Notes: a model not told the origin generated them from the sequence alone. Positions 17,695 to 64,000 are shown, counted from the first letter of the stretch. The stretch is 64,000 nt of DNA from Alphaproteobacteria bacterium (GCA_013286365.1 JABDFY010000002.1:20062-84061), one strand, 5' to 3'. Translations and numbers: made by a program.

Positions 17695-17738
17695 TTTTTT
17701 TGCGCCGTATATCCCGATGAATTGATAGGAATAAAATT

Positions 17739-28925: not shown

Positions 28926-29271
28926 TGGAGCGCCTAATCAGATTATTTTACTGGACCTTGACCCTGAAAAGTTGAGGCTTGCGAGAACCCGCTCATGGGA
29001 TGGATGAGGGGGAGGTATATAACTTGTTACATCAAGCAAGACAAGGATCCCCCTCTGTTAAGTTAAGGGCGGTAAAGATAGCTTTTTACCTTGACATATA
29101 AGGGTTTTTAACCGATTTTGTCGCCCGCACGCGAGAGCGGAATTTTGGCTCTTGTTGACCGTGCCTGGTGTCAGCGTAACAGCTGGAATCCTGTTTAATG
29201 ACAGACCAATATTTAAGTGCTATTGCACCCAACGCCAAAGCAAACTTGTAGTTACACTGGAGAACCCCGCG

Positions 29272-43383: not shown

Positions 43384-43384
43384 A

Positions 43385-47972: not shown

Positions 47973-48440
47973 GTGAGTGAGTCAGATACATCAGAATCAG
48001 AAGCAATGTCGATGTCAGCGCCAGCTGCAGTAACGAGCTGGCAGGAACAAGACGGCGTATTGCGTGAGATGTGGCTGCACCACCAAACGCCAGCAGCAAT
48101 TGCTCAGGCACTTAATCGGTCGGTGGCGGCTATTATGACCCGCGCCGCACGTCTCGGTTTACCTAGGCGCTCGGCACCCGGTCGCAAACCTGGCCGTCGT
48201 ACATCCGATACCGGTGTTAACTCATCGACTGCTATGGGTCGTTCCGCGATGCCACGCACGAATAACGCAGCTTCCGAAACGATTGAAGTTTCGTCGCAGA
48301 CCATGGAGCGCGTTTGTCTTATGTGCCTTGGAAAATTTCAATCTATTGGACGACATAACAGGATATGTTCAAATTGCAAAAATTCTGCAGAGTATGAATC
48401 AGGCGCGCGCTTACCCGATCTTCACTTTCCAGTCGAGTAA
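47973..48440 (+). CDS. GcrA-like HTH protein with a C-terminal CxxC...CxxC zinc-ribbon-like motif
   Basis: W..QDGVLREMWLHHQTPAAIAQALNRSVAAIMTRAARLGLPRR parallels the GcrA N-domain. The C-terminus reads CLMC-x14-CSNC. The start (GTG 47973 or ATG 48006) is uncertain. Confidence 0.55.
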   Translation: MSESDTSESEAMSMSAPAAVTSWQEQDGVLREMWLHHQTPAAIAQALNRSVAAIMTRAARLGLPRRSAPGRKPGRRTSDTGVNSSTAMGRSAMPRTNNAASETIEVSSQTMERVCLMCLGKFQSIGRHNRICSNCKNSAEYESGARLPDLHFPVE

Positions 48441-48449
48441 GGAAATCTC

Positions 48450-49073
48450 ATGGCACTCAAAGATGCTATCAGCACAATTCTAACCCGCAACGCATTTTAC
48501 CGCGACGGCTATCGTTTGCTTTTGCGTATCAGTATTATCCAGGGGATCGTCATCATTCTCCTGGTTAGCGGCATAGTTACGCTCTTGATGACGATCGAAA
48601 CCAAACACGTCTATTTTGCGACAACTTCAGACGGTCGAATTATCAGCATCGTGCCGCTTAATGATCCCTATCGCTCTCATGCCGATGTCATTGCCTGGGC
48701 GGCCGGAACAGCACAAAATACGATGCGCTTTGGCTATCATGATTTCCGTGAACGCCTACAACAAGCGTCTGCAAATTTCACAGCCTCGGGTTGGGAGAGT
48801 TTTACCAAGGCTATGAAAGATGCCCACATCCTGGAGGCCGTAGAAGCACGCAAACTGGTTGTCACCATGGACATCAACGGCGCGCCCGAGATCAAGAAAG
48901 AATTTGTGAAAAACGGCGTTTACACCTGGTATCTTGAGTTTCCCGTTCAAATCAAGTTTGACGGTGATAATCCACCCGTTCCTATTCACGCCGTGCTGCT
49001 TTTGCAGATCGTGCGCGTTTCAACATTGCAGAACACCGATGGCATCAGTATTGAGCAGTGGGTTGCACGCTAG
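48450..49073 (+). CDS. icmL: type IVB secretion protein IcmL/DotI
   Basis: RNAFYRDGYRLLL, then a TM segment, then a periplasmic domain ...DVIAWAAGTAQNTMRFGYHDFRERLQ.... Typical IcmL/DotI/TraM. Confidence 0.85.
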   Translation: MALKDAISTILTRNAFYRDGYRLLLRISIIQGIVIILLVSGIVTLLMTIETKHVYFATTSDGRIISIVPLNDPYRSHADVIAWAAGTAQNTMRFGYHDFRERLQQASANFTASGWESFTKAMKDAHILEAVEARKLVVTMDINGAPEIKKEFVKNGVYTWYLEFPVQIKFDGDNPPVPIHAVLLLQIVRVSTLQNTDGISIEQWVAR

Positions 49074-49082
49074 TTGCGCAGC

Positions 49083-49826
49083 ATGACAAAACTATCCGAA
49101 CCAGAAGCAGCTCCAGCTAAAGCAAAAGCCAAAAAAACTGAGGCAAAAATACCAAAGCTGCCAAAGATCCCGGGAGCTGGTAATTTTTTTGGCCTGTTCG
49201 AGGAGGAGCCTGTCAATGTCGACAGCCTTCCTGACGCAGAGGATGCGACTAAACATCGCCTGAGAATGTTAAAAATCGTTTATGCGGAATCTATACTTAT
49301 CATTGTGCTGGTCGGTATTTTTATTATTGCTATGCCGATCTTTAGACCCATTTATCTTTATCACGCCGTCGAACCAGACGGTAAGCAAGCTATGCTTGTG
49401 CCGCTTGATATGCCCAATCTGACAAATCAGGCCGTGAGATCGTGGGCGACATCTAGCGTCACCGAAATTATGACCCTTGGCTTTGGCGACTTCAATCAAA
49501 AGCTCATTTCCCAAAAACCAAGATTTACAAAAGAAGGCTGGGAAGGGTTCTTGAAGGCCTTCTTCAATCAAAATGTCGGCAAGAGGTTCGAGGACTATTC
49601 GTTAGTTCTGACAACGGTACCAGCAAACACAGCGGTCATAACGGCGCAAGGTGAGAACCCTAAAGGTCAATACCAATGGACGATAGAACTTCCGGTCATC
49701 ATGACCTACGCCACCAACAACGACGTTTCACAAAGAGCTTATGTGCTTGTCAGATTAACGATTGTGCGTGTTCCCCCGGAAGAAAACTCGTCCGGCATAG
49801 CCATCCAATCCTGGATGTCCCTCTAA
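49083..49826 (+). CDS. IcmL/DotI paralog with a basic N-terminal extension (may occupy the IcmM/DotJ position)
   Basis: One TM segment plus a full IcmL-like domain (...QAVRSWATSSVTEIMTLGFGDFNQKL...) that aligns by eye with the preceding gene. Confidence 0.7.
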   Translation: MTKLSEPEAAPAKAKAKKTEAKIPKLPKIPGAGNFFGLFEEEPVNVDSLPDAEDATKHRLRMLKIVYAESILIIVLVGIFIIAMPIFRPIYLYHAVEPDGKQAMLVPLDMPNLTNQAVRSWATSSVTEIMTLGFGDFNQKLISQKPRFTKEGWEGFLKAFFNQNVGKRFEDYSLVLTTVPANTAVITAQGENPKGQYQWTIELPVIMTYATNNDVSQRAYVLVRLTIVRVPPEENSSGIAIQSWMSL

Positions 49827-49978
49827 GTTAAGGTCCCCGAAGGTTACGACTTAGCCAAGGAATGCCGCTTAAAACCGGTTTTTCCGTGGATAGGCTTGCG
49901 TTATAAACTTGCTGTTAACTTTGGATTGCTGAAAGGCTAGTTTCATCCGATTATGAATGACTGATTCGAGGATCGGAT

Positions 49979-51127
49979 TTGCCGCAAAGACCTAAACAGA
50001 TACTCGCCCTGAATACACCCGCGCTTGCCTTGTTCATTGGCACGCTTATAGCGGTGTTTTTCGCTTTACCATTTGATTGTCATGCGCAGACACCTCAAGG
50101 TGCTGACGCACCCGCTCAAAGCCCGTCACTTGATACTGGGTTTCCAGCCAACCCTTCACCGTCACTTCCGAACACGACACCGTCTTCGTCTGATAACGGC
50201 ATCAATATTCCGGCACCACCACCACCCTCAGCCTTGTCAACCAATCCCGCTCAACTGCAACAACAGGCCGAAGAAGCGGCTATGCAAGCCGAAGCACAAG
50301 CCGAAGCCGATCAAGCCAAACGCGAAAACGATCACAATCACCAATCGTTTGATCGTGCATCATCGGGGATTATGCCGCTCTCGCCTGACCAGATACGCGA
50401 GTTCATGCATCGCCTCGAAAATACACAAACAGCGGCGCAACCGCCTTCCGGCGGCCCACCAAAGGCTGAAGTGAAAGTCACCACGCTTTCACTTGATCCA
50501 GGTGTTGAACCGCCGCAAATAAATTTGGCTGCGGGTTATGTCACCACTATTACTATGGTTGATGCGACAGGCGAGCCCTGGCCTATTCTTGACATTGGTG
50601 TTGGTGGCAGCTTTGAGGTAACGCCAACACAGTCAAATTCAGACTCTCACGTTGTACGTATTATGCCTTTGACGCGTATCGGTGAGGGCAATCTTTCGGT
50701 GTTACTTAAGACATTGCCGACGCCGATCATATTCCGTCTGTCTGCCGGGGGCCCCACAGTTGATATGCGTTATGATGCACGCATACCTAAACTTGGGCCT
50801 GGCGCAAAAGTACCTCTCATTGATCGCCCCCGTCTTGAGGCTGGCGATCAAACCATCATGATGGTGCTTGAAAATGCGCCCCCCAAAGAAGCGAAACGCA
50901 TGAAAGTTAATGGCGTGGACGCGAGAACTATGGCTTGGATGTTGGGCAGCAATGTATATGTTCGCACGCCGCTTACACTGTTATCACCAGCTTGGAATGC
51001 TAGCGTATCTTCGGCCGATGGAATGACGGTCTATGAAATTGGTGATGCGCCCATTTTGCTGATGTCAGACAATGGCGATATGGTGCGGGCACGGCTTTTA
51101 CGGGATGAAGATCATGACAAACCTTGA
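49979..51127 (+). CDS. icmK: type IVB secretion outer-membrane core protein IcmK/DotH
   Basis: TTG start, signal peptide, P/S/A/Q-rich linker, then the conserved C-terminal domain (...AGYVTTITMVDATGEPWPILDIGVGG...NLSVLLKTLPTPIIFRL...). Confidence 0.85.
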   Translation: MPQRPKQILALNTPALALFIGTLIAVFFALPFDCHAQTPQGADAPAQSPSLDTGFPANPSPSLPNTTPSSSDNGINIPAPPPPSALSTNPAQLQQQAEEAAMQAEAQAEADQAKRENDHNHQSFDRASSGIMPLSPDQIREFMHRLENTQTAAQPPSGGPPKAEVKVTTLSLDPGVEPPQINLAAGYVTTITMVDATGEPWPILDIGVGGSFEVTPTQSNSDSHVVRIMPLTRIGEGNLSVLLKTLPTPIIFRLSAGGPTVDMRYDARIPKLGPGAKVPLIDRPRLEAGDQTIMMVLENAPPKEAKRMKVNGVDARTMAWMLGSNVYVRTPLTLLSPAWNASVSSADGMTVYEIGDAPILLMSDNGDMVRARLLRDEDHDKP

Positions 51128-52844
51128 CGAATTTGATCAGCCCGAGGAGTTGGGACCGAATAATCAGGGTCCCCGCAACATGACATCTAATTTGGCCGAA
51201 GCTTGGCGCTCCCGGCCGCTCTTTAAACTTCTCGTGCTGTTGACAGTTATAGGCGCTGTTGTAGCCGCTAGTATTGGGCTGTTCTCAGGTAGTGGTATTC
51301 TCAACCAGTCGCGTATCGCTAAGCCGCCAGAAATGACCGAAGCGCCAGGCGGTAAATCGTCACCATTTTATATTGAACAAACCAAAGAAGCTGCCGAGCG
51401 CCGCGCTGCGGCGGCCATGCAAAGTGGCGGCAGCGCATTGCCCACACCTGTTGGACAAGCGTCTGACACTGAAGAAATGGGCGGCGAGGGACAAAAGAAA
51501 GATCCGCTCGTCGAATTGCGCGCCGAGACAGAACATATGAAACAACAGCTGGCACAAGTTCAGCAGCAGCAACAAATTCAGCAACAACAGGTCCAGCAAC
51601 AACCAAAGGCGCCACCCGCTCCTTTTGACGACAGCTTAGCCCAAGCCATGCAGCGGCAGATGCAACAGCTGATGGAAAGCTGGATGCCGCATGGCATTAA
51701 AACAGTTGATGTCACGGCGGTGCATGAAAACAAAGAGAGAGACGAAAGCAAAGCCGCCCAAGCAGGCGCAGCCGGTGCCAATGCAAACGGCGTAGCTGGC
51801 GCCGCTGTTCCGCCACCACCGCCGCCCAAAATCTTGGTACCTGCTGGTACAGTTAGCTATGCGCAGTTGCTAACCGAGGCGAACTCTGATGTGCCCGGTC
51901 CCATCCTCGCTCAAATTTTGTCAGGCCCGCTTTCAGGTGCACGCATCATTGGACAGTTCCAGGTCATGAACGACTACCTGGTTTTGCAGTTCAATCTTGC
52001 TGATCGTAAGGGCACAGATTACTCGATCAATACTCTCGCACTTGATACAGATACGACGCTCGGCGGCTTGGCGACGGAAGTAGACGAACGATATTTCTCG
52101 CGCGTGTTGCTACCGGCAGGCGCTAGCTTCTTGCAGGCGGTCGGTCAGACTGTGGGTCAAGGCGGTTCTTCAATAGCGACGAACGGTACCACGACGATTG
52201 TTTCGCAATCGAGCCGCGGTATAACCCAAGGCATGTTCACAGGTCTTGGCCAAGCGGCGCAAACGGCAGGCCAATTTTTCCAGAATGAGGCGAATTTAAT
52301 TAAACCATTGGTACGCGTAGCTGCCGGAACACCTATGGGCTTGTTTTTTGTTTCGTCTGTTTATGATGTGTCGCCACAGAATGCTGCCAATCCTTATGGT
52401 TATGGACCCAATGGACCTAACGGTCCTTACGGCGCTTATCCCGGCATGGCTGGCGGTTATCCAGGCGCTGGTTATCCTGGGGCCGGTTATCCAGGTGCTG
52501 GTTATCCAGGGGCTGGTTATCCCGGCCTCGGTTATCCAGGCGCTGGTTATCCTGGGGCTGGATATCCCGGCGCTGGCGGATATCCCTCATTTTATGGTTC
52601 TTCGCCCGGCGGCTATTCACCGGGCGCAACTTTTGGAGGTAATGGTGTGCCTGGCGGTGGTCCTGGTGCCAGTTACCCAATTTATCCAGGCGCGAATGGA
52701 CAAGTTCCTTATCCAAGTGCTATGGGCAATTCGAATACGTCGAACGCAACATCACCTAATATGCCAATCTTGCAAAACACTAACACCGGTGCCGTTAGCG
52801 TAATACCGGGCGCCAGTGTCGGCAGTGCTGGTTTTGGACACTAA
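51105..52844 (+). CDS. icmE: type IVB secretion protein IcmE/DotG (VirB10/TrbI-like domain) with a C-terminal GYPGA repeat tail
   Basis: TM segment, poly-Q coil, then a TrbI-like domain (VPAGTVSYAQLLTEANSDVPGPILAQI...VRVAAGTPMGLFFVS), then a G/Y/P-rich tail. The start is 51105 or 51114. Confidence 0.8.
   Translation: MKIMTNLDEFDQPEELGPNNQGPRNMTSNLAEAWRSRPLFKLLVLLTVIGAVVAASIGLFSGSGILNQSRIAKPPEMTEAPGGKSSPFYIEQTKEAAERRAAAAMQSGGSALPTPVGQASDTEEMGGEGQKKDPLVELRAETEHMKQQLAQVQQQQQIQQQQVQQQPKAPPAPFDDSLAQAMQRQMQQLMESWMPHGIKTVDVTAVHENKERDESKAAQAGAAGANANGVAGAAVPPPPPPKILVPAGTVSYAQLLTEANSDVPGPILAQILSGPLSGARIIGQFQVMNDYLVLQFNLADRKGTDYSINTLALDTDTTLGGLATEVDERYFSRVLLPAGASFLQAVGQTVGQGGSSIATNGTTTIVSQSSRGITQGMFTGLGQAAQTAGQFFQNEANLIKPLVRVAAGTPMGLFFVSSVYDVSPQNAANPYGYGPNGPNGPYGAYPGMAGGYPGAGYPGAGYPGAGYPGAGYPGLGYPGAGYPGAGYPGAGGYPSFYGSSPGGYSPGATFGGNGVPGGGPGASYPIYPGANGQVPYPSAMGNSNTSNATSPNMPILQNTNTGAVSVIPGASVGSAGFGH
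52455..52574 (+). repeat. 8 in-frame tandem 15-bp repeats (consensus GGTTATCCAGGCGCT, encoding GYPGA) inside icmE
   Basis: Units counted directly at 52455, 52470, 52485, 52500, 52515, 52530, 52545 and 52560. Degenerate G/Y/P-rich sequence flanks both sides. Confidence 0.95.
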
Positions 52845-52876
52845 ATTGGTTTTGTGACAACAGGAGACTCTTTCCA

Positions 52877-54103
52877 ATGACGGATCCCTACAATTCAGAC
52901 CCCCAAAATCAAGACGAACATAAAGAAGAAACAGGGGCTGAAGTTTGGCACGACGACCGGCCGCCGGTTGATGACTTTGCTGATCATCCGGCAGAAGAGG
53001 CTGTTGCCTCAGAAGAGGCGATGCCCGAGGGGGATCAGTCGGAAGCACCCGTTACCGAAAAGAAAAAACGCTCGATTTTATTACCAATTGCCGTCGGCAT
53101 TATTGGCGTCCTATTTCTGGGCGCCATGCTTTACATTCAGTTTGGCGGCTCAAATTCAAATACCAATCCACCACCCATAGCCGTGGCAAGTTCAGCGCCT
53201 TCGTCGCCAACAACGGCTGCGGCGTCAACAACTTCATCCACGCCAGCCTCGGGTGATGTCGATATCGGATCACTTTATAACGGCGCAACTCAGGATCAGT
53301 CACAAGGCAAGCCGACCGCTGCCGATGCAGCCCCAACCACATCTTCTGCGATCATGACGCCGCCGCCAGCGCCGGCCAGTACACCAGCTTCTCCTCCATC
53401 GGTCGTTCCTTCAAAGGCGGATCAGCCGACACAACCATCACTACAACCATCACCGCCACCAATGGCGGTACAAAATCCAATTGTCATGCCAGCACCGATA
53501 GCGCCAGCACCACCGACGTCCGCCACGTCTGATAATGGTGCTGCTGAACAACGTTTAAGCGCTCTGACTTCGCGCGTAGATGATTTACAGAAAGCGCTTG
53601 ATCAAGCTACGCAACAGTTGGGCCAGGTCAGTAATATGGTCGCCGCCAATCCCCCGTCACAAAACACCGCGCAAACTAATCCGGCACTTGAAGAACGACT
53701 TGATAAACTTGAGCAGCGATTGGCCCAACTCAGTAACAGTGAAACAGCGAGTACGTCTTCAGGCATTTCTGAGCCGCAGCCTACTTCGCGAAGCAATTCA
53801 GTGGTCATGTCTCGCATGACGCATAAAGCGAAACATAAAAGTAGAAAACACGGAGCTCCCAAAAACGTTGCTCATAATGTATCTAGGCATCACACGAAAG
53901 TTGCCAATGCCGGGCCAGCTAATACGCATTGGGTTTTACGGGCAGCGACACCCGATAGTGCCTGGGTTGCTACAAGTGCTTCTTCTGCTGATTTGCGCCG
54001 CGTTGAAATTGGCGATGACTTGCCTGGCGTCGGTCGGGTACGCGCCATTCATCAGACCGGTGATAGCTGGGTCATTGAAGGATCGAAAGGTACGGTCCAT
54101 TAA
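52877..54103 (+). CDS. icmG: IcmG/DotF-like protein, expanded with P/S/T/A-rich and coiled-coil regions
   Basis: Acidic N-terminus, one TM segment, long low-complexity region. The C-terminus AWVATSASSADLRRVEIGDDLPGVGRVRAIHQTGDSWVIEGSKGTV resembles the IcmG C-terminal domain. Position after icmE also fits. Confidence 0.6.
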   Translation: MTDPYNSDPQNQDEHKEETGAEVWHDDRPPVDDFADHPAEEAVASEEAMPEGDQSEAPVTEKKKRSILLPIAVGIIGVLFLGAMLYIQFGGSNSNTNPPPIAVASSAPSSPTTAAASTTSSTPASGDVDIGSLYNGATQDQSQGKPTAADAAPTTSSAIMTPPPAPASTPASPPSVVPSKADQPTQPSLQPSPPPMAVQNPIVMPAPIAPAPPTSATSDNGAAEQRLSALTSRVDDLQKALDQATQQLGQVSNMVAANPPSQNTAQTNPALEERLDKLEQRLAQLSNSETASTSSGISEPQPTSRSNSVVMSRMTHKAKHKSRKHGAPKNVAHNVSRHHTKVANAGPANTHWVLRAATPDSAWVATSASSADLRRVEIGDDLPGVGRVRAIHQTGDSWVIEGSKGTVH

Positions 54104-54292
54104 GCCTGAAGCAAGGTTATTGCCCCGAAAATAGGTAATGAGTTGAAAAGCTTTGATATTTCACTCCTCTAAGGGCAATTAAAGGCTTTGTTAACAAGTT
54201 CACTGATAGATTATTCAGGAATAACAATAAATTGAGGCAATTTTTGCCAATTGAAAATTTACGTTTTCGGAGGCATTTTCGGAAGCGAAACG

Positions 54293-55393
54293 ATGAATAA
54301 AATAATTTCTCCATCGCAGCAAAAAGGCCGCCTTTGGCTGGGGCCATTTTTATTGGCCTTTGGGCTTTGTTTGCTCACACCAAAATTGGTCGCGGCACAG
54401 ACAAGCACTCTTGGCGATGTCTTATGCCAAGTTGGCGGCAATATATCCTCATTTGCCGAGCTCTTTTCCACAATAGCCTATTCGGCAGGCGTCTTCTTCG
54501 CCATTATGGGTGTCCTTGAATTAAAACTTCATGCCTTCGAGCAAAACAGACAACATATTCGCCAGGGAATTATGTATCTCGTGGCAGCTGGCGGTTTATT
54601 GACTTTGCCCGGTGTTGTCGGAGCCCTTCAAAGCAGTATTTTTATGGGAAGTTTGAGCGGCAGCAGCACGATGGTGAACGGCCTGTCGGCTTGTACGCCT
54701 GGTGGCGCATTTAGTAATGCAATCGGCGGTATTGTTCCCGCAAGCGTGACCATAGGTGGCGGCATCGGTACGGCAGGCTACGGTGGCGGAATAGCGGCCA
54801 GTTCTGGCTCGATTATGGGCGTTACAGGCTCAGGCGCTGGTCTCGATGGCATGTTGGAAAATATTGTCGGCGACATCTATCAACCGATGCTGTGGTTGTT
54901 GTCTGTCATTGGCGCCGTTGCTGGAATTTATATGATAATTCGGGGCCTGTTTAAGGCAGCTAAGTATGGAACTGATCCAAAAACAAATTCCGCCCCAGCC
55001 ATTCTTGTCAATTTTATAATTGGCGCCATACTTGTTTCATCCAGTTCGGCCTTAGACGCTATGACGGGCACTGTGTTTGGTCAGGGTATCCAGGAATTCA
55101 GTGGCCTTAATTGGTCATCGGTGACAAGCGATAGTACAGATACTGCCGCCATCAACGCCGCGCTCAGCGCTGTGTTGGCTTTTGTTCAATTAATCGGGGC
55201 CATCTCATTCATCCGTGGCTGGTTCATCGTCAAGCAGGCGGTTGAGGGCACCGGACAGGCAACAATCCCACAAGGACTAACGCATATTATAGGTGGTGTA
55301 TTTGCGATCAATATCGGCGTTTTCATCTACATCATGAGCAATACGTTTTTCAGCGGAACGTCACTTTCTGGTATGGTGAATCCACCGACTTGA
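54293..55393 (+). CDS. IcmC/DotE-position membrane protein built from three IcmD-like modules
   Basis: Signal peptide, then three segments that each align by eye with the IcmD-like protein at 55517-55906 (see findings). Gly-rich linkers join them. Confidence 0.55.
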   Translation: MNKIISPSQQKGRLWLGPFLLAFGLCLLTPKLVAAQTSTLGDVLCQVGGNISSFAELFSTIAYSAGVFFAIMGVLELKLHAFEQNRQHIRQGIMYLVAAGGLLTLPGVVGALQSSIFMGSLSGSSTMVNGLSACTPGGAFSNAIGGIVPASVTIGGGIGTAGYGGGIAASSGSIMGVTGSGAGLDGMLENIVGDIYQPMLWLLSVIGAVAGIYMIIRGLFKAAKYGTDPKTNSAPAILVNFIIGAILVSSSSALDAMTGTVFGQGIQEFSGLNWSSVTSDSTDTAAINAALSAVLAFVQLIGAISFIRGWFIVKQAVEGTGQATIPQGLTHIIGGVFAINIGVFIYIMSNTFFSGTSLSGMVNPPT

Positions 55394-55455
55394 TGGGTGG
55401 TATTTTAGGGCGAAGAATAACTATGTTTTTCAAATGCTTTTGGGAAATTAGGAAT

Positions 55456-55485
55456 TTGTTAATCGCGGCAATTTAGTGTTAGTAT
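55456..55485 (+). promoter_or_regulatory. candidate sigma70-like promoter upstream of icmD (TTGTTA-N18-TAGTAT)
   Basis: Hexamers at 55456-55461 and 55480-55485 in the 123-nt gap before icmD. Pattern match only. Confidence 0.25.
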
Positions 55486-55516
55486 GTCTTAAATTTTTTA
55501 TATTGGGGAGGCACAG

Positions 55517-55906
55517 ATGAAAGTTCAATCGACGGCTTGGCAATGGGCACTGATGGCAGCAGTAGTAGGTATGGCCATACCGATGCCCGATATTGCTTGG
55601 GCACAAGGAGCTACCGACCTTAACTCGTTGGTTGGCAGCATTAACTCAAACGAAATGCCGGCTATTCCATTGGCATTATCGACTGTTAGCTATGTTGTTG
55701 GTATCTTTCTTGGTATCCGCGGCATCATGTTACTTAAGCAGCATGCAGAAAATCCAACGCAACAAAATCTACCAAAGGGCATCTCAGCCATTGCTGCAGG
55801 TAGTGCGTTTCTTGCGTTGCCAGCGTTGACAAAAGTTCTGCAGGGTACGACGCAGCTAACCAGTGGCGCCGCTAACTTCCAGGATTTCAACACAACATTC
55901 CACTAA
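55517..55906 (+). CDS. icmD: IcmD/DotP-like small membrane protein
   Basis: 129 aa with a signal peptide and two TM helices. GGGGAGG Shine-Dalgarno. It sits between the icmC-like gene and icmJ, as in Legionella. Confidence 0.55.
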   Translation: MKVQSTAWQWALMAAVVGMAIPMPDIAWAQGATDLNSLVGSINSNEMPAIPLALSTVSYVVGIFLGIRGIMLLKQHAENPTQQNLPKGISAIAAGSAFLALPALTKVLQGTTQLTSGAANFQDFNTTFH

Positions 55907-55922
55907 GTACTGGTCTTTCGAT

Positions 55923-56609
55923 TTGACCCTCCTTCCAATCTCACTCGGTATCAGGCGTTCGCCTGATACCGAGAGTGTTGTTCGGCAGGGCTCTTCGCAT
56001 TTAAAATCACTTATGGAAAAATGTTTACGGCAGGATGATTTCACCTGCTGTTTCTGCGGCTTTCGTGCCGAACAGTACCAACGCATTGTACCTTATTCCG
56101 ATGCTGGCCGTGATCCGCCGTTTGTTACGGCGTGCACGTTTTGCGAGCAGTGTCTAGCTCTTGAGCGCGCGGGTATGATGGGTGCTGGCGTTCTTGTTTG
56201 GCTGCCGGAAATAAGTCAGACGGATTTGCATCATATTGCACGCGCCATATATGTTGCGCGCGCGTCTAAAAGCGATCTCGCCGTACGAGCAGCTCACGCC
56301 CTTGATGCTTTAATGTCGCGCCGCGCTGAGGCCAAGAAGCGTCTGGGTAGTGATGATCCCCTCTTATTGGCGACAGTATTTCATGAAAACCTAACCGAGC
56401 AGGAATATCAGCAAAGCACGACAAAGTTAGAAGGCATACGCCTTCTGCCTCTCGATAAGCGTCTCGTTCGCACACATAAGGGCGATATCAATCAATTTCC
56501 GCAAATCGTTACCTATTGGGCATCGCCACAGGGCCCCTATGGCAAATTACCGATAGAAAAATGGGCGGATTTACTGAAATTGGCTACAACCACCATCGGA
56601 AATGCCTGA
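55923..56609 (+). CDS. icmJ: type IVB secretion protein IcmJ/DotN (Cys-rich, Zn-binding type)
   Basis: DDFTCCFCGFRAEQYQRIV...FVTACTFCEQCLALERAG...VLVWLPEISQTDLHHIARAIY parallels Legionella IcmJ. The start is uncertain: TTG 55923 or ATG 56013. Confidence 0.8.
   Translation: MTLLPISLGIRRSPDTESVVRQGSSHLKSLMEKCLRQDDFTCCFCGFRAEQYQRIVPYSDAGRDPPFVTACTFCEQCLALERAGMMGAGVLVWLPEISQTDLHHIARAIYVARASKSDLAVRAAHALDALMSRRAEAKKRLGSDDPLLLATVFHENLTEQEYQQSTTKLEGIRLLPLDKRLVRTHKGDINQFPQIVTYWASPQGPYGKLPIEKWADLLKLATTTIGNA
55944..55973. promoter_or_regulatory. perfect 30-bp palindrome CTCGGTATCAGGCG-TT-CGCCTGATACCGAG just downstream of icmD
   Basis: 14-bp arms verified base by base. It lies 38 nt after the icmD stop, in or just before the icmJ 5' region. 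Confidence 0.85.
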
Positions 56610-56666
56610 TTAAAGCGCTTGAGTAACGATCCCAAAGATTGACCGTTGCCAGTAGCGCTGTCCCTA

Positions 56667-56684
56667 AAATCAGGCGCCTGATTT
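56667..56684. promoter_or_regulatory. perfect 18-bp palindrome AAATCAGGC|GCCTGATTT between icmJ and icmB
   Basis: Verified base by base. It shares the ATCAGGCG / CGCCTGAT core with the palindrome at 55944-55973. Confidence 0.85.
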
Positions 56685-56816
56685 CTGACCTCTGACTGTC
56701 TTGATCCGGTGGAAGAGAGCGCCTAAGTTCATCATGAACAAGAATTTCAAGCATCTTTATGGGGAAAGCTTGAGCGTCAAACCTAGTCGTTGGCAGAGTA
56801 TTTTCAGGACGGCGCA

Positions 56817-59816
56817 ATGATAAGTTTTCTAGACGATACCATTGCTGCCGCTCTTCTGGCCTTGCATCAGCCTATGGAGTCGTTCATCCAACTTGAAACG
56901 GCGGATGATGAAGACACGCTTGTATCCAGCGACGGCTCGCTTATTACCTTCATTAAATTTTTCGGCGCCCGCCAAATTATAGGTGATGCTGAGTATCAAT
57001 GGATTGTCAGCCAGGCGACATTAAAACTAGGTGCCCGTTTCGATCGTACCGGTTATGCCATGCAGTTTTATTTTATGCGTAATCCAGCGACTGTTGGTCA
57101 TGATCTCGATAAGGTGATGCTGAGTAATCGAATGGCAGCGCGGGCGTTGGAGCTTGACCTCGATGATCTTCTTAATGAACGGCGCCGGCACCTCGCTAAG
57201 TATCTCGCGCATGAAGAAATTTATATTGTGCTGTGGACCCGGCCTTCCGCCTTAAGCAAAACTGAGGCGACGAAGGCTATTAAGCAGCGGGGTAAAATAA
57301 AATGGTTACCCTCGCGTGATGCCCAATACCCTATGCAGGCTCTTGAGGCTTTGCGTACAAGGCATAAGAGCTACGTTGCCGCCACACTCGCCGCGCTTGA
57401 AGACATAGCCATGAAAGCCCGCATGGTAAATGCGCACGAAGCTTTGGCGGCGGTGCGAGGAAATCTTTATCCACAGATCGAGAATGAAAAATGGCGCGCC
57501 AATTTGCCGGGCGATCCTCTTATGCCGCGGGCTGGGTTAGAAAAAGGTAAGGATGTTTCCGATGTCCTCTGGCCCCCTCTGCGCCGTCAGTTATGTTTTG
57601 GCGATGCCAAGATTATTTCGCCAACAATCGTGCAGATCGGTGGCCTTATATGGACGGGCGTAGACATGACATTGGCGCCCGCCGAGCCGTCACCGTTTCC
57701 GCAACTTTTGGCGCGATTAATCGACAATGATGTTCCATTTCGCCTTTCCTATTTGATCGAAAGCGCCGGTGCGCAAGGGATCGGTTTTCGTGCCTTCGCC
57801 GCATCTGTATTGGCGTTTACCAACCAAGTTAACAAACAAATTCGTGAGTCACTTAAAGCGTTACAGGTTTTGTCGCAAAGTGAACCGGTCGTTAAATTGC
57901 GTGTTTCAATATCGACTTTTGCACCAGCCGACGACAAGCATTTGCTTGAAACGAGGGCGGGAGCTTTAACCCAAGCCCTGGAAGCGTGGGGATACTGTCA
58001 GGCGTCTTCAGCCGGTGGTGATCCTCTGGAAGTCGTTTTATCGTCAGCACTTGGAATTGCTTGTGCTTCGACAGCGCCCGCTGCCGTTGCTCCGTTCCGT
58101 GAAGTCGTCAAACTTCTGCCGTGGCAACGCGCTTCTTCACCCTTTGAAGAAGGTTCAATTTTATTCCGTACTCTGGATGGAAGATTGTGGCCCTATCAAA
58201 CCGGCAGCAGCTTGACGACACTCTGGTTCGATCTGATTTTTGCTCAACCCGGCGCCGGAAAGTCGGTGCTCATGAACGCACTGAACCTTGGCACGGCGCT
58301 TACAGCGGGTGCGGCCCGTTTACCATTTATCGCTATTCTCGATATTGGCCCGTCTTCGTCGGGGTTGATCTCTCTCATTCGTGATGCGTTGCCACTCGAT
58401 CGTCGTCATGAGGCGCTGCATTTCAAATTGCGCATGACACCCGATTATGCTGTCAATCCGTTTGATACGCAGCTGGGATGTCGTTACCCGCTGGTTGAAG
58501 AGCGTTCCTATCTATCGGAGCTGCTGACGCTTTTGTGCACACCGCCAGGACAGGCCGTACCTTATGATGGTATGGCGCAGCTCGTTGGTCTTTGCGTTGA
58601 TGAAATGTACCGTTGGCGCGATGATGCAGGGGCAAATACTGAGGCACGGCCCTACTTAATGCGTATCGAACATGAAGTTGATGAGGCGATCGAAAAATAC
58701 AACATTCACTTACCCCAAGACCCTTATTGGTGGGATGTCGTTGACGCTCTCCATGAACAAGGCGCTTATCACGAAGCAGCCTTGGCACAACGGCATGCAT
58801 CACCGACACTTGTCGATGCAGTTACGGCGGCGCGCCGCCCACAAATCAGAGCTTTGCTTGAAGAAACGCAAATTGGGGCATCGGCCGAGTCTGTCATCCA
58901 CGCTTTCGAACGCATGATAGCCTCTGCCGTACGCGAATTCCCCATCTTAGCTTCAGTGACGCGGTTTGACGTTGGTGGCGCGCGCATAGCGGCCGTAGAT
59001 TTACAAGACGTGGCGCCGCAGGGCGATGAAGTCGCCGATCGGCAAACAGCCATTATGTATATGCTTGGGCGTCATGTGCTTATTCGCTCTTGGTGGATGG
59101 GTCCGGACGCGCTGCGCTCGGTGCCGGAAAAATATCGCCCTTATCATGAAGCGCGTATTCGTGATATTCGCGAAACGCCAAAGCGCATATGTTTTGACGA
59201 ATTTCATCGCACCAGCAAAACGAATGCTGTGCGGGCACAAGTTATTCGCGACGTACGCGAAGGTCGTAAGTGGGGCGTTCAGATTGTGTTGGCTTCACAA
59301 TTGCTCGGTGATTTCAGTGAAGATATGGTCGATTTGGCAACGGGTGTTTGGATTTGTGGTACGGCCGTTTCAGATCGTGCGCTCGAAGAAACGGCCTCCC
59401 GTTTCGGCCTATCCGAAACGGCGCGCTGGGTCATGCGTTATCGGCTAACTGGTCCGAGACCTTCTGGTGCGCCTGTTTTACTTCTCCTTAGCACCAATGA
59501 GGGACGCTATGAACAGCACCTCATTAATACATTGGGCCCGATCGAGTTATGGGCGCTCTCGACCTCGTCGGAAGATGTGCAGGTAAGAACAAAACTTTAT
59601 GAGGCCCTCACTGCCAATCGTGCACGTCAAGTGCTGGCCCAATTTTTCCCTGGTGGCTCAGCGCGTCAAGAAATTCGCCGCCGTGTTGTACTGCGTACTG
59701 AAAAAGGTGAAGTAGAATCTGGTGCGACGACTGTTGTTATCAGTGAAATAGTCCAGGAACTCGTTAATTATGCCCATGCGCAATCGCCGGCAGGCCAAGG
59801 CGTCGCCAAGACGTGA
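56817..59816 (+). CDS. icmB: type IVB secretion ATPase IcmB/DotO
   Basis: About 1000 aa. N-terminus ...ESFIQLETADDEDTLVSSDGSLITFIKF, Walker A AQPGAGKSV, Walker B ICFDEFH. An in-frame TTG at 56790 is an alternative start. Confidence 0.9.
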   Translation: MISFLDDTIAAALLALHQPMESFIQLETADDEDTLVSSDGSLITFIKFFGARQIIGDAEYQWIVSQATLKLGARFDRTGYAMQFYFMRNPATVGHDLDKVMLSNRMAARALELDLDDLLNERRRHLAKYLAHEEIYIVLWTRPSALSKTEATKAIKQRGKIKWLPSRDAQYPMQALEALRTRHKSYVAATLAALEDIAMKARMVNAHEALAAVRGNLYPQIENEKWRANLPGDPLMPRAGLEKGKDVSDVLWPPLRRQLCFGDAKIISPTIVQIGGLIWTGVDMTLAPAEPSPFPQLLARLIDNDVPFRLSYLIESAGAQGIGFRAFAASVLAFTNQVNKQIRESLKALQVLSQSEPVVKLRVSISTFAPADDKHLLETRAGALTQALEAWGYCQASSAGGDPLEVVLSSALGIACASTAPAAVAPFREVVKLLPWQRASSPFEEGSILFRTLDGRLWPYQTGSSLTTLWFDLIFAQPGAGKSVLMNALNLGTALTAGAARLPFIAILDIGPSSSGLISLIRDALPLDRRHEALHFKLRMTPDYAVNPFDTQLGCRYPLVEERSYLSELLTLLCTPPGQAVPYDGMAQLVGLCVDEMYRWRDDAGANTEARPYLMRIEHEVDEAIEKYNIHLPQDPYWWDVVDALHEQGAYHEAALAQRHASPTLVDAVTAARRPQIRALLEETQIGASAESVIHAFERMIASAVREFPILASVTRFDVGGARIAAVDLQDVAPQGDEVADRQTAIMYMLGRHVLIRSWWMGPDALRSVPEKYRPYHEARIRDIRETPKRICFDEFHRTSKTNAVRAQVIRDVREGRKWGVQIVLASQLLGDFSEDMVDLATGVWICGTAVSDRALEETASRFGLSETARWVMRYRLTGPRPSGAPVLLLLSTNEGRYEQHLINTLGPIELWALSTSSEDVQVRTKLYEALTANRARQVLAQFFPGGSARQEIRRRVVLRTEKGEVESGATTVVISEIVQELVNYAHAQSPAGQGVAKT

Positions 59817-59831
59817 TCGGAAGGAAGCAGG

Positions 59832-61082
59832 ATGAGTAGTAGTGGCAGTAATACGCCTCAAACAGACCCCATCTGGATGCTGATGGCTTTACTACTCATT
59901 ATCGGTGGCCTGATGTGGTTTCTTTGGCATGAGTTTAGACCGCAGTTGCTCGAAGTCTTGCGCTACATGCGTTTTGGCGAACTCTGGGTCATCAATCTTT
60001 TTACCGGCCGCGAAGTACCTTGCATGAGATGGCTTCGTGTGGCGGATCCCGATAATTTTCAGCCCACACGTGAAGCAATGCAATGGGCGGCAGCCTGTTT
60101 TGGTGGCAACAACCTGCAAAATCTTTCGCCCCAACAGGCTCAAGCTTACTACAGCCTTTCTGGCGTAAGTATTGGCGCCGTTGCCAAGCGGACGTTGCCG
60201 TTTTTTAGCATTCTGTCCATTCCCGTTTTCAGTGCTATGGCGATTTACGCCTTATTTTATTCCCCGCTGAGCAAGTTTAGAACGATCTATACACTTGAAA
60301 CTTTTATCAAAACACAAGCTAAAATGTGGCCAGTGATTTCACCGATCGTTAAATTTAAATCAGCCGAGCACAGCGCGCGTTCTCCGGGCCAAATTATACC
60401 GGACAAATTACCGCCGTTTGCCGAAGCGCTATCGCCAGAAGAGTGGATTGCTTGGCATCGTATTCCGGTGACGAACGGCATCCCAGACCGCGAAGCTGCG
60501 CGACGCGCCTTTCTTATACAGCTGGGGCCGCGTTGGCAGGGCATTGCTAATCAACCGCCATATTTTTTGGCCTTATTTGCGGCCTTTTCCCTTAAAGGTG
60601 TGCAACGGCGTGAAGAGAGCGACGAATTGCTTGGCGAAATCGCCAAATATTGGACAGTTGATGGTGGGTTTCAAATGCCGATGAGCTTATCGTCAAAAAT
60701 CAATGGTATGATCAAAGATGCGGAGATTGGCGATCCTGCCGTGGCGATAGCCAATCAACATGCCTATCGCACGACGGCGCTTATGGGCGTGCTTCGTTGG
60801 GCACGTTCCATGGGCGGTGTGTTGGCTCCGGCGCAGTTTGTTTGGTTGCGGGCGGTCGATCGGCCACTCTGGTATCCTTTGAATAATCTTGGGCGACGTT
60901 CGTTTCACACTGAAGGTGCTGGGGCCATGGCCCACTTCATGGCCGAACAAAGCGCCAAGAAGCCATTGCCTTTGCCGCGTATTGACACGGCCATTGTGAC
61001 GATTAATCAGTTTCTTGCAGATCCAGAAAAACGTACAATCTCCATTCCGCCGCGTGAAGAACCAAAGTCTGCAAAATCTTGA
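59832..61082 (+). CDS. icmP: IcmP/DotM-like inner-membrane protein of the coupling complex
   Basis: N-terminal TM segments plus a large cytoplasmic domain. Located upstream of dotL, as in Legionella. Sequence recognition is weaker than for the other components. Confidence 0.55.
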   Translation: MSSSGSNTPQTDPIWMLMALLLIIGGLMWFLWHEFRPQLLEVLRYMRFGELWVINLFTGREVPCMRWLRVADPDNFQPTREAMQWAAACFGGNNLQNLSPQQAQAYYSLSGVSIGAVAKRTLPFFSILSIPVFSAMAIYALFYSPLSKFRTIYTLETFIKTQAKMWPVISPIVKFKSAEHSARSPGQIIPDKLPPFAEALSPEEWIAWHRIPVTNGIPDREAARRAFLIQLGPRWQGIANQPPYFLALFAAFSLKGVQRREESDELLGEIAKYWTVDGGFQMPMSLSSKINGMIKDAEIGDPAVAIANQHAYRTTALMGVLRWARSMGGVLAPAQFVWLRAVDRPLWYPLNNLGRRSFHTEGAGAMAHFMAEQSAKKPLPLPRIDTAIVTINQFLADPEKRTISIPPREEPKSAKS

Positions 61083-61122
61083 CGCAGTTCTTACGATTTC
61101 AACAAGGACAAAGGAACGAACG

Positions 61123-61587
61123 ATGCCAATATGGCCACATAAATCACCTTTTAAGGCCAAAGTACTGGGACATACTCTTATTGCAGCATTCAGAACCAGC
61201 CACCCGCCGCTAATCTGGCAATTTGATCTGGAAAAAAATCACAGCTTTACTGTAGCTCTTCAAGGCGAAGAAGGTGATCTGGAATTGGGTGTAACTTCGC
61301 CGCGGGGCGAGTTTTACCCGATTGCCCATTTTACTGACCGCGAAGATGCTGAAGAAGCGTTTGCTCGGGTGCAAAAGGCTTTAATGTGCCGCCATCAACC
61401 CTGGCACTGGAAACGGGCCGTCTGTTGGTTGGCTTTAGCCGCTATCGTTTACTTGCTCTTATTTAGTCCCATGGTTGGAGAGGGTATTAAAATTGCGTCG
61501 CTTTTATTCTCCTCGAATAATCCAGTGAATACACCAAGCGGGGTTCCCCTACCGGCTGATCAAGTTTTGCACGCCCCGTCTCAATAA
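61123..61587 (+). CDS. hypothetical protein with one C-terminal TM segment, inserted between dotM-like and dotL
   Basis: ATG after AAGGAA. 154 aa with TM segment AVCWLALAAIVYLLLF. No family recognised. Confidence 0.45.
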   Translation: MPIWPHKSPFKAKVLGHTLIAAFRTSHPPLIWQFDLEKNHSFTVALQGEEGDLELGVTSPRGEFYPIAHFTDREDAEEAFARVQKALMCRHQPWHWKRAVCWLALAAIVYLLLFSPMVGEGIKIASLLFSSNNPVNTPSGVPLPADQVLHAPSQ

Positions 61588-61628
61588 ACCCCAGGTGTCG
61601 TCGTGGGTGCTGGATTGAGGTACGCGGT

Positions 61629-61649
61629 CGTTTTTCGTTAACGAAAACG
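61629..61649. promoter_or_regulatory. near-perfect palindrome CGTTTTTCGTT|AACGAAAACG upstream of dotL
   Basis: 10-bp arms centred on GTTAAC, with one extra T in the left arm. It lies about 80 nt upstream of the dotL ATG. Confidence 0.5.
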
Positions 61650-61728
61650 TAATATTAGCGACCGAGACTTATAAAGGAAAATGAGCTAATATAGCAGCCT
61701 TGTTGGCTAAAGGGCGGGTGTCACTTCC

Positions 61729-64000
61729 ATGCCTATTGTACTACCCAAATTCGTCGTCAAACACCGACATCTATTGCGCGATGTGCGTCCTGTATCGCAG
61801 CGCATAGCCGAGTATATGCAGCAGCCAAGTTCCACGGCTATGGTATTTGGTTTTGCGGTAGCTATCTATTGGTTGTTGCCCCAATACGTTATGGTCTGGC
61901 CGGACTTCATGATGATACTGGTCTTCTTCTACTTTCGTTGGTTCTACAAGCGCCCCTTCGTTCCGCCGCTTAAGATGCCAAAGTTTGCAAATTTGCCCGA
62001 TCCACACAATCCACCGCCAGGCAGGACAGGTTCTGGTAAATCAGATGGCATCCTTTTTGTCGGCAACATATCAGATGAAGATGACCCCTATGAATTGCGC
62101 AAAGAAATTTGGCTGACTAACACAGATGCGCGAACCCACATTTTGTATCTGGGTACAACCGGTGCTGGTAAGACTGAAGGCCTGAAATCGATTGTCACCA
62201 ACGCGCTTACTTGGGGATCGGGGTTCGTCTATGTTGACGGTAAAGCAGATACCGATTTGTGGGCTTCGCTTTATGCCCTGGCGCGCCGCTTTGGGCGTGA
62301 TGATGATCTCTTGGTTCTTAACTATATGACCGGTAACACCGACGAAGGATCGGTTTCAAATAGTATGAACCCGTTTTCGAACGGCTCATCGTCTTATCTC
62401 GCCAACATGATCACAAGTTTCATGCCAGATGCCGGCGGCGATAATGCGATGTGGAAAGAACGTGCTATGGCCTTGATGTTTGCGCTCATGCCCGCGTTGA
62501 CTTGGAAGCGCGATAAGCAAGGTTTACTTCTTGATATTGGCGTCGTTCGCGACAACCTCGAAATGCAACCAATTATACGCCTCGCTCGCGACCCCAACCT
62601 ACCGGAGCGAATAATTCATGGCTTGCAGGGATACCTCAACACATTACCAGGCTATGTCGATGCCGCGTTTGATGATGAGGGCAACGAACGGCCACCATCG
62701 CCGGATCAACCAATGTACGATCTACAGGTAGCTCGCCAACAACACGGCTATCTGTCAATGCAGTTCACGCGCGCTCTGCAGATGTTGGCTGATGAGTATG
62801 GCTATATTTTCAAAGTTCAACTTGCCGATATCGATGTGCTTGATGTCGTGCTTAACCGACGCATTTTAATTGTGCTCATTCCAGCCTTGGAAAAAAACCA
62901 GGACGAAGCCGCCAATCTCGGTAAAATTGTTGCCGCTAGTCTTAAGGGTATGATGGGCGCTACGCTTGGCAATACAGTTGAAGGTTCGTGGGAAATGGCC
63001 ATCGGCAGCAAGCAGACGCGCTCATCTTCATCGTTTATGACCGTGTTTGATGAGGTCGGCTACTACACGGCACAGGGCATGGCTGTGATGGCAGCGCAGG
63101 CGCGCTCGCTTGGTTTCTCCCTTATCTTTGCCTCACAAGATTTGCCGTCGATGGAAAAGAAAATCAAAACCGAGGCCAAATCGATTGTCGGTAACTGCAA
63201 TCTTAAAATCTTTGGTAAAATTGAGGATCCGACCGATACGCGCGAGTTTCTCAACAAACATGCCGGCACGGCTTATGTGCTCGAATCAAGCGGTATGTCG
63301 GCACCTACAAATACGATTTCAAGCCTCTTTTTCAATATGCCGTTTGTTGATAATCGCGGAACAACACAAACCAACCAACGTCAACGCGTCGATTATGACC
63401 ACATTCGGTTTCAACGTGAGGGTGAAGTTCACATCCTTTTTGCCGACTGGTTCTTGCGTGCGCGCATGTTTTTTGTAGCTCCGGAGAAGGTGAAGGCCTT
63501 GCGCGTTCACCGATTTTTGCCAGTGCCCGGCACGACGTCTTCCACGGCTGCTCGTGAACGCGCTATGCATGAACTTGCAACACGATTAAAAGACCCTGAG
63601 TGGACGGCAACTTCGGCATCATCTGACGCGGCCTTTTCACCTGAGGTATCCGCTCTTGCCAAGGGGTATGCTGCGGGTCTAGCCGCGAAACGATCGACCC
63701 TCGAAGCAAGTGCTATGGCGCTAGCCAACTTTGCGATCTTGCCGCCACCGGCTAAAACAGCTGTCACGACATCAGACAGTGCCAAAAAATCGGATGGTAT
63801 TAAGAGTAAAGCCGGAGGTGATCGTGCACAACCAGCCGTTATTCCCGAGATCTCGGTAGAAGAAAAAGCAGCTCTTCGTGCGGGATTGCCGCCGCTTTAC
63901 GAAGGTGACCAATATGCGGTTCAGGAAGTGGCTCAAAGCACAGCTAAACCCAAAGCCACGACAAATTTCGTGACGACGGATGCCGATCTAGCTGTGGTCA
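61729..64000 (+). CDS. icmO: type IV coupling protein IcmO/DotL (3' end lies outside the window)
   Basis: Absent from the ORF track because no stop occurs before the window end. Hand translation from ATG 61729 is open to 64000. Two N-terminal TM segments, Walker A LGTTGAGKTE, Walker B FMTVFDEVGYY. Confidence 0.85.
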   Translation, partial: MPIVLPKFVVKHRHLLRDVRPVSQRIAEYMQQPSSTAMVFGFAVAIYWLLPQYVMVWPDFMMILVFFYFRWFYKRPFVPPLKMPKFANLPDPHNPPPGRTGSGKSDGILFVGNISDEDDPYELRKEIWLTNTDARTHILYLGTTGAGKTEGLKSIVTNALTWGSGFVYVDGKADTDLWASLYALARRFGRDDDLLVLNYMTGNTDEGSVSNSMNPFSNGSSSYLANMITSFMPDAGGDNAMWKERAMALMFALMPALTWKRDKQGLLLDIGVVRDNLEMQPIIRLARDPNLPERIIHGLQGYLNTLPGYVDAAFDDEGNERPPSPDQPMYDLQVARQQHGYLSMQFTRALQMLADEYGYIFKVQLADIDVLDVVLNRRILIVLIPALEKNQDEAANLGKIVAASLKGMMGATLGNTVEGSWEMAIGSKQTRSSSSFMTVFDEVGYYTAQGMAVMAAQARSLGFSLIFASQDLPSMEKKIKTEAKSIVGNCNLKIFGKIEDPTDTREFLNKHAGTAYVLESSGMSAPTNTISSLFFNMPFVDNRGTTQTNQRQRVDYDHIRFQREGEVHILFADWFLRARMFFVAPEKVKALRVHRFLPVPGTTSSTAARERAMHELATRLKDPEWTATSASSDAAFSPEVSALAKGYAAGLAAKRSTLEASAMALANFAILPPPAKTAVTTSDSAKKSDGIKSKAGGDRAQPAVIPEISVEEKAALRAGLPPLYEGDQYAVQEVAQSTAKPKATTNFVTTDADLAVV

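Follow-up and report, generated by a model that had tools for sequence, protein, structure and literature searches.

A probable chromosomally fixed type IVB secretion locus in an uncultured lineage of Alphaproteobacteria

We analysed a block of about 16 kb (positions 47973-64000) lying inside a 64-kb stretch of DNA from Alphaproteobacteria bacterium (GCA_013286365.1 JABDFY010000002.1:20062-84061), the whole 64,000 nucleotides of which are referred to here as the window. The block encodes homologs of the Dot/Icm type IVB secretion system (T4BSS) in thirteen plus-strand open reading frames (ORFs) that are separated by short gaps or overlap. Window ORFs of at least 120 aa were scanned against Pfam and NCBIfam profiles, PDB sequences being compared separately, and the matches across the block reached E = 1e-129. 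Twelve of the genes, from IcmL to IcmO/DotL, had been named in an earlier note made from the DNA alone, and these assignments held: most were borne out by profile or PDB matches, that of DotF weakly, and that of IcmB by its database homologs and IncI1 TraU. The features of the block are as follows.

47973..48440, plus strand: GcrA-domain helix-turn-helix protein with a C-terminal CxxC...CxxC motif, probable cluster regulator (Pfam GcrA 0.0063, NCBIfam 3e-4, both weak)
48450..49073, plus strand: DotI/IcmL copy 1, inner-membrane complex (Pfam PF11393 T4BSS_DotI_IcmL 5e-44, NCBIfam IcmL 153.6 bits)
49074..49826, plus strand: DotI/IcmL paralog, copy 2, full length with periplasmic domain (Pfam PF11393 1.6e-37)
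49979..51127, plus strand: DotH/IcmK, outer-membrane core complex (Pfam PF12293 5.5e-73, PDB 6x62 DotH 1.2e-44)
51072..52844, plus strand: DotG/IcmE, TrbI/VirB10-type core protein (Pfam TrbI 5e-11, NCBIfam DotG 4e-46)
52877..54103, plus strand: DotF/IcmG-like protein (NCBIfam IcmG_DotF 1.9e-8, weak, 34.3 bits)
54251..55393, plus strand: DotE/IcmC-like polytopic inner-membrane protein of the TraQ family (NCBIfam TraQ 6.8e-13, DUF6750 1e-4)
55517..55906, plus strand: DotP/IcmD-like small membrane protein (DUF6750 1e-4)
55923..56609, plus strand: DotN/IcmJ, zinc-binding subunit of the coupling complex (NCBIfam IcmJ_DotN 2.2e-24, PDB DotN 6e-18)
55944..55973, plus strand: conserved hairpin at the icmD/icmJ junction, 13-bp stem and 4-nt loop
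56817..59816, plus strand: DotO/IcmB, VirB4-family ATPase, 999 aa in the database (mechanical ORF from 56790)
59832..61082, plus strand: DotM/IcmP, coupling complex (Pfam DotM_C 1e-47, NCBIfam DotM 1.3e-49, PDB 6sz9_B 1.2e-25)
61123..61587, plus strand: lineage-specific small protein between DotM and DotL, cytoplasmic beta-rich domain and one transmembrane helix (mechanical ORF from 61015)
61729..64000, plus strand: DotL/IcmO, type IV coupling ATPase (mechanical ORF from 61711; PDB 6sz9_A DotL 2.7e-129 over residues 21-606)

Of the components by which a T4BSS is broadly recognised, this set has the TraU/IcmB/DotO ATPase, DotL together with DotM and DotN, and DotI, DotH and DotG, but not DotC, DotD, DotA, DotB or IcmT. 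Relatives of the block were taken from three samples: a scan of one genome per species, which returned 26 IcmB loci, all from uncultured metagenome-assembled genomes (MAGs); a protein database holding more than 1000 IcmB relatives, from the best 120 clusters of which identities and taxon labels were read; and 58 metagenome loci anchored on IcmL (single loci are cited by numbers with the prefix L). The first DotI copy also matched a PDB sequence (4.9e-20) and scored 75 bits against Legionella DotI versus 37 bits against R64 TraM, and the tandem IcmL pair is kept in all related clusters. On the DotG ORF, the NCBIfam DotG model outscored that of IncI1 TraO (3.3e-28). Past its TrbI domain, this protein ends in a Gly/Tyr/Pro-rich tail of GYPGA-type repeats (GYPGAGYPGAGYPG..., encoded at ~52390-52700); the repeats of Legionella DotG are N-terminal pentapeptide repeats. 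The DotF-like protein consists of an N-terminal transmembrane segment, a Pro/Ala/Ser/Thr-rich linker, a coiled coil and a C-terminal domain, and its gene stands between DotG and DotE, the same position as in Legionella and IncI1. Seven hydrophobic segments are predicted in the DotE/IcmC-like protein. Its IcmD-like neighbour is a paralog, the two ORFs cross-matching in tblastn, and the IcmD-like gene is duplicated in L009, L050 and L051; in L051 a gene for a TraX-family (PF05857) membrane acyltransferase (17052-17855, plus strand) lies between the IcmC-like and IcmD-like genes.

DotN/IcmJ keeps its CxxC...CxxC motifs and probably starts at a conserved NTG at 55923 (the mechanical ORF begins at 55863). 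A database protein of the same 999 aa is 100% identical to IcmB, and NCBI and JGI give the name IcmB to homologs that share 72-82% identity with it. IcmB matched no Pfam profile and no PDB sequence; it was 26% identical to IncI1 TraU over ~970 residues (E about 1e-88 to 1e-91), and its Walker A column is invariant in the alignment. The DotL ORF matched several type IV coupling protein (T4CP) families and carries the Walker A motif GTTGAGKT and the DE motif. It is cut by the end of the window ~40-90 codons short of its stop, full-length relatives having 801-845 aa, and the tail of these relatives shows conserved short motifs with variable linkers between them, a layout reminiscent of the adaptor-binding tail of Legionella DotL.

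The first gene of the block had been read as a GcrA-like neighbour suggesting an alphaproteobacterial chromosome; it is consistent with such a host, but it proved to be the conserved first gene of the cluster rather than a mere neighbour. A homolog (46-60% identity) lies directly upstream of IcmL in at least 38 related loci, with an invariant core (WxxQD..LR..W....IA..LGRS..AIMTRAARLGLPRR), and because the gene comes first in every related locus that reaches that far, it is part of the cluster. No consistent GANTC or CtrA-box motif was found upstream of it. The ORF between DotM and DotL matched no Pfam or NCBIfam family and was found at 30-48% identity in the same position in L001, L005, L006, L009, L012, L024 and L027. 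Though it occupies the trbB position of IncI1, it showed no similarity to TrbB. Its single-sequence AlphaFold2 model (pLDDT 71) gave weak Foldseek matches to PH-like folds, all at E > 0.1, and no likeness to TrbB, IcmS/W or LvgA at this level.

The annotated plasmid NZ_CP024854 was used as the IncI1 reference, with the order traM(DotI)-traN-traO-traP-traQ-traR-traS-traT-traU-traV-traW-traX-traY(DotA)-excA ... trbA-trbB-trbC-nikB-nikA. Proteins of the window matched its TraM, TraN, TraO, TraT, TraU, TrbA and TrbC colinearly, which indicates that icmP-x-icmO following icmB is the IncI layout minus the traV-excA segment. The order once described as a novel rearrangement is therefore that of the IncI1 tra/trb backbone, traM to traU and then trbA-trbB-trbC, and it is ancestral (IncI-like conjugative) and not peculiar to this genome. 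The L-K-E-G-C-D-J-B part is, as had been noticed, shared with region II of Legionella, where the genes run icmTSRQPONMLKEGCDJB.

Family scans found no relaxase or integrase in any window ORF of at least 120 aa, and the window contains no tRNA and no Rfam family at the gathering threshold, in agreement with the earlier view that relaxase, integrase and tRNA genes are lacking there. NikA, NikB, ExcA and TrbB had no match by tblastn in 1.04 Mb comprising the window and ~90 related loci, and no relaxase was found in the flanks of relatives. GC content at third codon positions (GC3) was 0.483 for the T4BSS genes versus 0.475 for the flanks. Upstream of the block lie RND (resistance-nodulation-division) efflux genes, O-antigen genes, acnA and DUF1036, and the acnA-DUF1036-regulator-IcmL neighbourhood is kept in 7 of the 58 IcmL-anchored metagenome loci; other such loci have flagellar genes, LexA, ComEC and GltX upstream, forming a second chromosomal neighbourhood. 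Pairwise distances of acnA correlated with those of concatenated IcmL1+L2+K+E (r = 0.82, Mantel p about 0.001), and both data sets gave identical sister pairs. The identical 13-gene cluster was found on an 889-kb scaffold, where glycosyltransferases and Wzy follow; DapB or HtpX follows DotL in other relatives, the genes after DotL being housekeeping ones in L001, L024 and L027, indicating that the cluster ends at DotL.

For about 14 of the 26 species representatives, the flank available around IcmB holds no homolog of any other Icm protein of the window (in L023 it stands alone between PhaR and class I LysRS), and in some loci the cluster breaks after IcmL2 or after IcmJ. DotL is 66-71% identical across the lineage, the related loci of which span GC 0.485-0.60, and the 72-82% identity of IcmB across the best 120 clusters points to purifying selection. 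Such intact, highly conserved genes, scattered among housekeeping genes, indicate an old chromosomal resident under selection, unlike a mobile element. The cluster has been passed down vertically as part of the chromosome. L086 (Ga0155640_1164) and L076/L077 hold chromosomal T4BSS loci that are more distant (IcmB 46%, IcmL 32-41%, DotL 45-52% identity), with FabI-like, MurJ and RibF genes between IcmB and IcmL-IcmL-IcmK in L086; at least one other uncultured lineage thus has a scattered T4BSS.

All 26 species-representative loci came from MAGs labelled Alphaproteobacteria, "uncultured proteobacterium", Rhodospirillaceae or Bdellovibrionales (IcmB 61-81% identical), and the best 120 of the more than 1000 IcmB relatives bear the same labels. 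Since NCBI taxonomy files the alphaproteobacterial predator Micavibrio under Bdellovibrionales, this mix is best explained by the Micavibrionales of GTDB. By the labels of its relatives and the DUF1036 and GcrA-domain genes of the window, the host belongs to Alphaproteobacteria; from the labels and the NCBI placement of Micavibrio, its lineage is probably the GTDB Micavibrionales. The suggestion of an alphaproteobacterial chromosome, made at first from acnA and DUF1036, is supported by the relatives' labels, the recurring synteny and GC3. Adjacent PilT/PilU-like ATPase genes, 68-87% identical across the same MAG lineage, were seen at L031/L032 8958-11023 and L024 9957-10958, near flagellar hook/filament, methyl-accepting chemotaxis protein, PhaR/PhaC and ComEC genes, and together this gene content points to a motile, apparently non-reduced lifestyle.

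The hairpin at the icmD/icmJ junction lies ~19 nt downstream of the codon at which icmJ probably starts and occurs, with a 12-13 bp stem, in 18 distinct related clusters. It was found at the same position in L005, L006, L009, L027/L028, L034, L037, L039, L045, L050, L051, L058, L061/L073, L064, L066, L067, L072 and L078. Pairing holds for 88.5% of the alignment cells, slid controls reaching 31-42%, and compensatory changes affect 8 of the 13 pairs, some of them altering the encoded amino acids. A covariance model picked out a single copy of the hairpin in each cluster, no other copy in 1.0 Mb, and none in the plasmid relatives. The hairpin has no U-tract and no Rfam match. This covarying hairpin is a new observation; a speculative role for it would be to govern translation, or processing, between the segments of icmD and icmJ.

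On balance, we favour the reading that the block is the main locus of a T4BSS (Dot/Icm class, mating-pair-formation class MPF_I) fixed in the chromosome of an uncultured alphaproteobacterial lineage, probably Micavibrionales, and that this T4BSS works as a relaxase-independent protein translocator, which we infer to be its most likely function. The genes of the locus specify the DotL-DotM-DotN receptor complex, the DotO ATPase, inner-membrane proteins of DotI type and DotH/DotG/DotF-like envelope proteins, with ATPase and zinc-binding motifs intact. In the machine that we propose, the GcrA-domain protein would regulate the locus, the two DotI paralogs, the DotE/DotP-like proteins and the DotO ATPase would form the inner-membrane complex, and DotH, DotG and the DotF-like protein would be part of the envelope-spanning core. 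DotL, DotM and DotN, with the lineage-specific membrane protein, would constitute the substrate-receptor (coupling) complex. The DotL tail, together with DotM and DotN, would capture the substrates, and DotO would energise their contact-dependent, relaxase-independent transport via a channel of DotH and DotG into the target cell, which would be that of a prey bacterium or of a protist. The DotC/DotD lipoproteins, DotA, DotB and IcmT would be encoded elsewhere in the genome, and the layout is that of the ancestral conjugative IncI type, minus the traV-traY/excA segment.

Several points weigh against this reading. Pfam and NCBIfam scans showed no DotC, DotD, DotA, DotB or IcmT in the window, as the earlier note had observed for dotA-D and icmT/S/W/Q, and tblastn with TraY/DotA of IncI1 and with DotD, DotB and IcmT of Aminobacter pSR4 gave no match in the 1.04 Mb; small divergent proteins could escape these searches, which covered the loci and their flanks. 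Absence of these genes from the locus is expected, because the genes of the lineage are scattered and because in IncI plasmids and Legionella they occupy separate blocks. A PilT-like ATPase beside DotL in L024 was considered as DotB and rejected, its scores being 78.8 bits for PilT and 61.6 bits for DotB; on its 500-kb contig it is one of an adjacent PilT/PilU-like ATPase pair among housekeeping genes. Neither an IcmS/IcmW/LvgA-type adaptor nor an effector was found in these loci, and window ORFs included no IcmS/IcmW/LvgA, IcmQ/IcmR, IcmX, DotK or DotU/IcmF family. Large ORFs flanking related clusters, considered as effectors, were all housekeeping genes (flagellin, PBP1, KdpD, LigA). The NCBIfam scores all fall below the Legionellales equivalog cut-offs (bits/cut-off: IcmL 153.6/175, DotG 157.6/750, IcmG 34.3/200, IcmJ 86.1/100, DotM 169.2/230), and the proteins are homologs of Legionellales proteins lying outside the curated Legionellales equivalog families. 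Among the nearest relatives that IcmB and DotL have outside the lineage are plasmid-borne systems, so that the DNA-transfer ancestry is recent enough for the machine perhaps still to move DNA. The assignment to Micavibrionales draws on record labels and NCBI placement and not on a marker-gene phylogeny, and the genome paper of the cultured Micavibrio ARL-13 mentions no Dot/Icm system. As to the three grounds for doubt raised in the earlier note, profile matches support the assignments, the contig is not from Legionellales and no relaxase/oriT module was found next door.

A special case of the translocator is that it targets bacteria, an epibiotic predator injecting toxic or digestive effectors into Gram-negative prey, and we put this forward tentatively, as a possibility. 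The labels fit Micavibrionales, which are obligate epibiotic predators, and the flagellar, chemotaxis and PilT/PilU-like ATPase genes of relatives are typical of motile hunters. The genomes are not reduced, contigs of up to ~1 Mb carrying polyhydroxybutyrate (PHB), tricarboxylic acid cycle and O-antigen genes, and bacteria-killing type IVA secretion systems, cited in PMC12428579, provide a precedent. However, neither effector nor immunity genes were found in the loci and their flanks, the host taxonomy is itself deduced, and the gene content suits another lifestyle just as well: flagella, chemotaxis, PilT/PilU-like ATPases, PHB and large genomes fit an epibiotic predator of bacteria and a Legionella-like facultative protist parasite equally. 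To our knowledge, no bacteria-targeting T4BSS has been described. If the predatory injector is real, no earlier type IVB system would have had such a predatory role between bacteria, and if the hosts are epibiotic predators, the cluster is a concrete candidate for the unknown mechanism of feeding through the prey envelope. It seems doubtful to us that a free-living, motile order-level lineage (probably the predatory Micavibrionales) has, independently of Legionellales, domesticated an IncI-like machine for conjugation and made of it an injector of proteins against bacterial prey.

It is unlikely that the block represents the mating-pair-formation and coupling module of a conjugative element (an integrative and conjugative element or an integrated plasmid) that still moves DNA with its relaxase and oriT elsewhere. 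Points in its favour are an order of genes shared with IncI1 conjugative plasmids, plasmid-borne systems of Alphaproteobacteria and Pseudomonas among the top matches outside the lineage, a good score of DotL on the conjugation model TrbC (NCBIfam, 2.9e-111), and the TraX-family gene of the L051 cluster. But no relaxase, integrase, tRNA, repeat boundary or compositional shift was found at the locus, and the cluster adjoins acnA and DUF1036 in at least seven of the related loci from metagenomes and diverges together with acnA. In other relatives it occupies the second chromosomal neighbourhood, and many relatives have the genes spread out between housekeeping genes, yet intact and 72-82% identical. 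A decaying, non-functional remnant of an ancient T4BSS is highly improbable: a number of core components turned up in none of the loci examined and many relatives have a broken-up cluster, but 13/13 ORFs are intact, IcmB (72-82% identical) and DotL (66-71%) are conserved across a lineage spanning GC 0.485 to 0.60, the Walker and zinc-binding motifs are kept, and the covarying, regulatory-looking hairpin is maintained.

Recent papers on Legionellales and their relatives (PMC8896642, PMC11338181) treat effector-translocating T4BSSs for Legionellales, Piscirickettsia and Fangia only, as a hallmark of adaptation to eukaryotic hosts. The system described here, at first thought unrecorded in such organisms, has already been noted in passing: NCBI and JGI annotations name its IcmB homologs publicly, and a one-sentence survey result of Needham et al. 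(2022, Nat Microbiol, PMC9418006), obtained with MacSyFinder, lists pT4SSi, systems defined as having no cognate relaxase (Abby et al. 2016, PMC4793230), in 25 genomes of marine origin that lie outside UBA7916, seven of them Micavibrionales. It is otherwise uncharacterised, and we found no dedicated study of it in the literature. The lineage is widespread: the database has more than 1000 of its proteins, and its genomes come from a broad spread of environmental metagenomes. That these bacteria have a relaxase-less T4BSS passed on vertically would mean that the machine was domesticated more than once, or that it is much older and broader than assumed, and its IncI-type order would be a snapshot of an intermediate between conjugative and effector-translocating T4BSSs.

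The other 47 kb of the window encodes RND efflux, CrcB, a long O-antigen/polysaccharide region, a ClpA/B-like protein of the first nucleotide-binding domain (NBD1) only, aconitase, DUF1036 and two small unknown ORFs. The ClpA/ClpB/ClpV-like protein (42496-43527, minus strand) is a stand-alone protein of 343 aa, with just the first AAA+ domain and its lid; NCBIfam ClpV1 scores 7e-65, the matches falling within NBD1. Its gene adjoins acnA, and this pairing is kept in L043, L047 and L058. Within the O-antigen/polysaccharide cluster, an ORF of 775 aa (26610-28937, minus strand) has a GC content of 0.40 versus ~0.48 and matched nothing in Pfam or NCBIfam; possible readings are a polymerase-like membrane protein and a recent insertion.

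Among known systems, the IncI1 plasmids (R64-type) share with the block the tra/trb order, including trbA(DotM)-x-trbC(DotL) after traU. Their proteins are just 21-30% identical to those of the window, and the block, chromosomal and vertically inherited, is without traV/W/X, traY(DotA), excA, trbB and nikA/nikB. The Dot/Icm systems found in Legionella pneumophila and in Coxiella burnetii resemble the block in having homologs of DotI, DotH, DotG, DotF, DotE, DotP, DotN, DotO, DotM and DotL, and the Legionella system also in the L-K-E-G-C-D-J-B order, the chromosomal location without an adjacent relaxase, a DotL 39.7% identical over ~600 aa, and a DotI that is closer to the window's than R64 TraM is. 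They differ from it in that the host here is alphaproteobacterial, dotM and dotL follow dotO rather than lying upstream, and the locus in the window lacks icmT/S/R/Q, dotK, icmW/X, dotA-D and dotU/icmF, whereas it has a full-length second DotI paralog, a GcrA-domain regulator in first place and an extra membrane protein between DotM and DotL.

Related systems are not confined to Legionellales and IncI plasmids, as had been supposed, since MPF_I systems occur on plasmids and megaplasmids within the host's own class (Bosea pBSY19_1, the Methylorubrum extorquens AM1 megaplasmid, Rhizobium, Martelella, Aminobacter pSR4). With IcmB 39-44% identical (Bosea 42%) and T4CP 40-43%, these are the closest annotated relatives found outside the lineage. 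Unlike the block, they have IcmL-K-E-IcmT in one operon and IcmB in another, divergent one; pSR4 carries DotD as well as a DotB-like ATPase, and identity is no more than 27-28% for the core proteins IcmL, IcmK and IcmE. DotL of the window was 39.7% identical to that of Legionella and 40% to the T4CP of the Bosea megaplasmid, Legionella and Bosea being 43% identical to each other, while each of the three was 26-30% identical to IncI1 TrbC. The IcmB family comprises 1397 clusters at 50% identity, and in a neighbour-joining tree of IcmB, which holds no named Legionellales anchor, the window lineage groups with two metagenomic representatives; the lineage is one branch of a broad non-enterobacterial T4BSS radiation. 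The relaxase-less MPF_I systems (pT4SSi) listed in the survey sentence of Needham et al. (PMC9418006) come from seven marine Micavibrionales genomes, whereas the window's relatives come from a wide range of metagenome samples, and they are probably the same kind of system in the same bacterial order.

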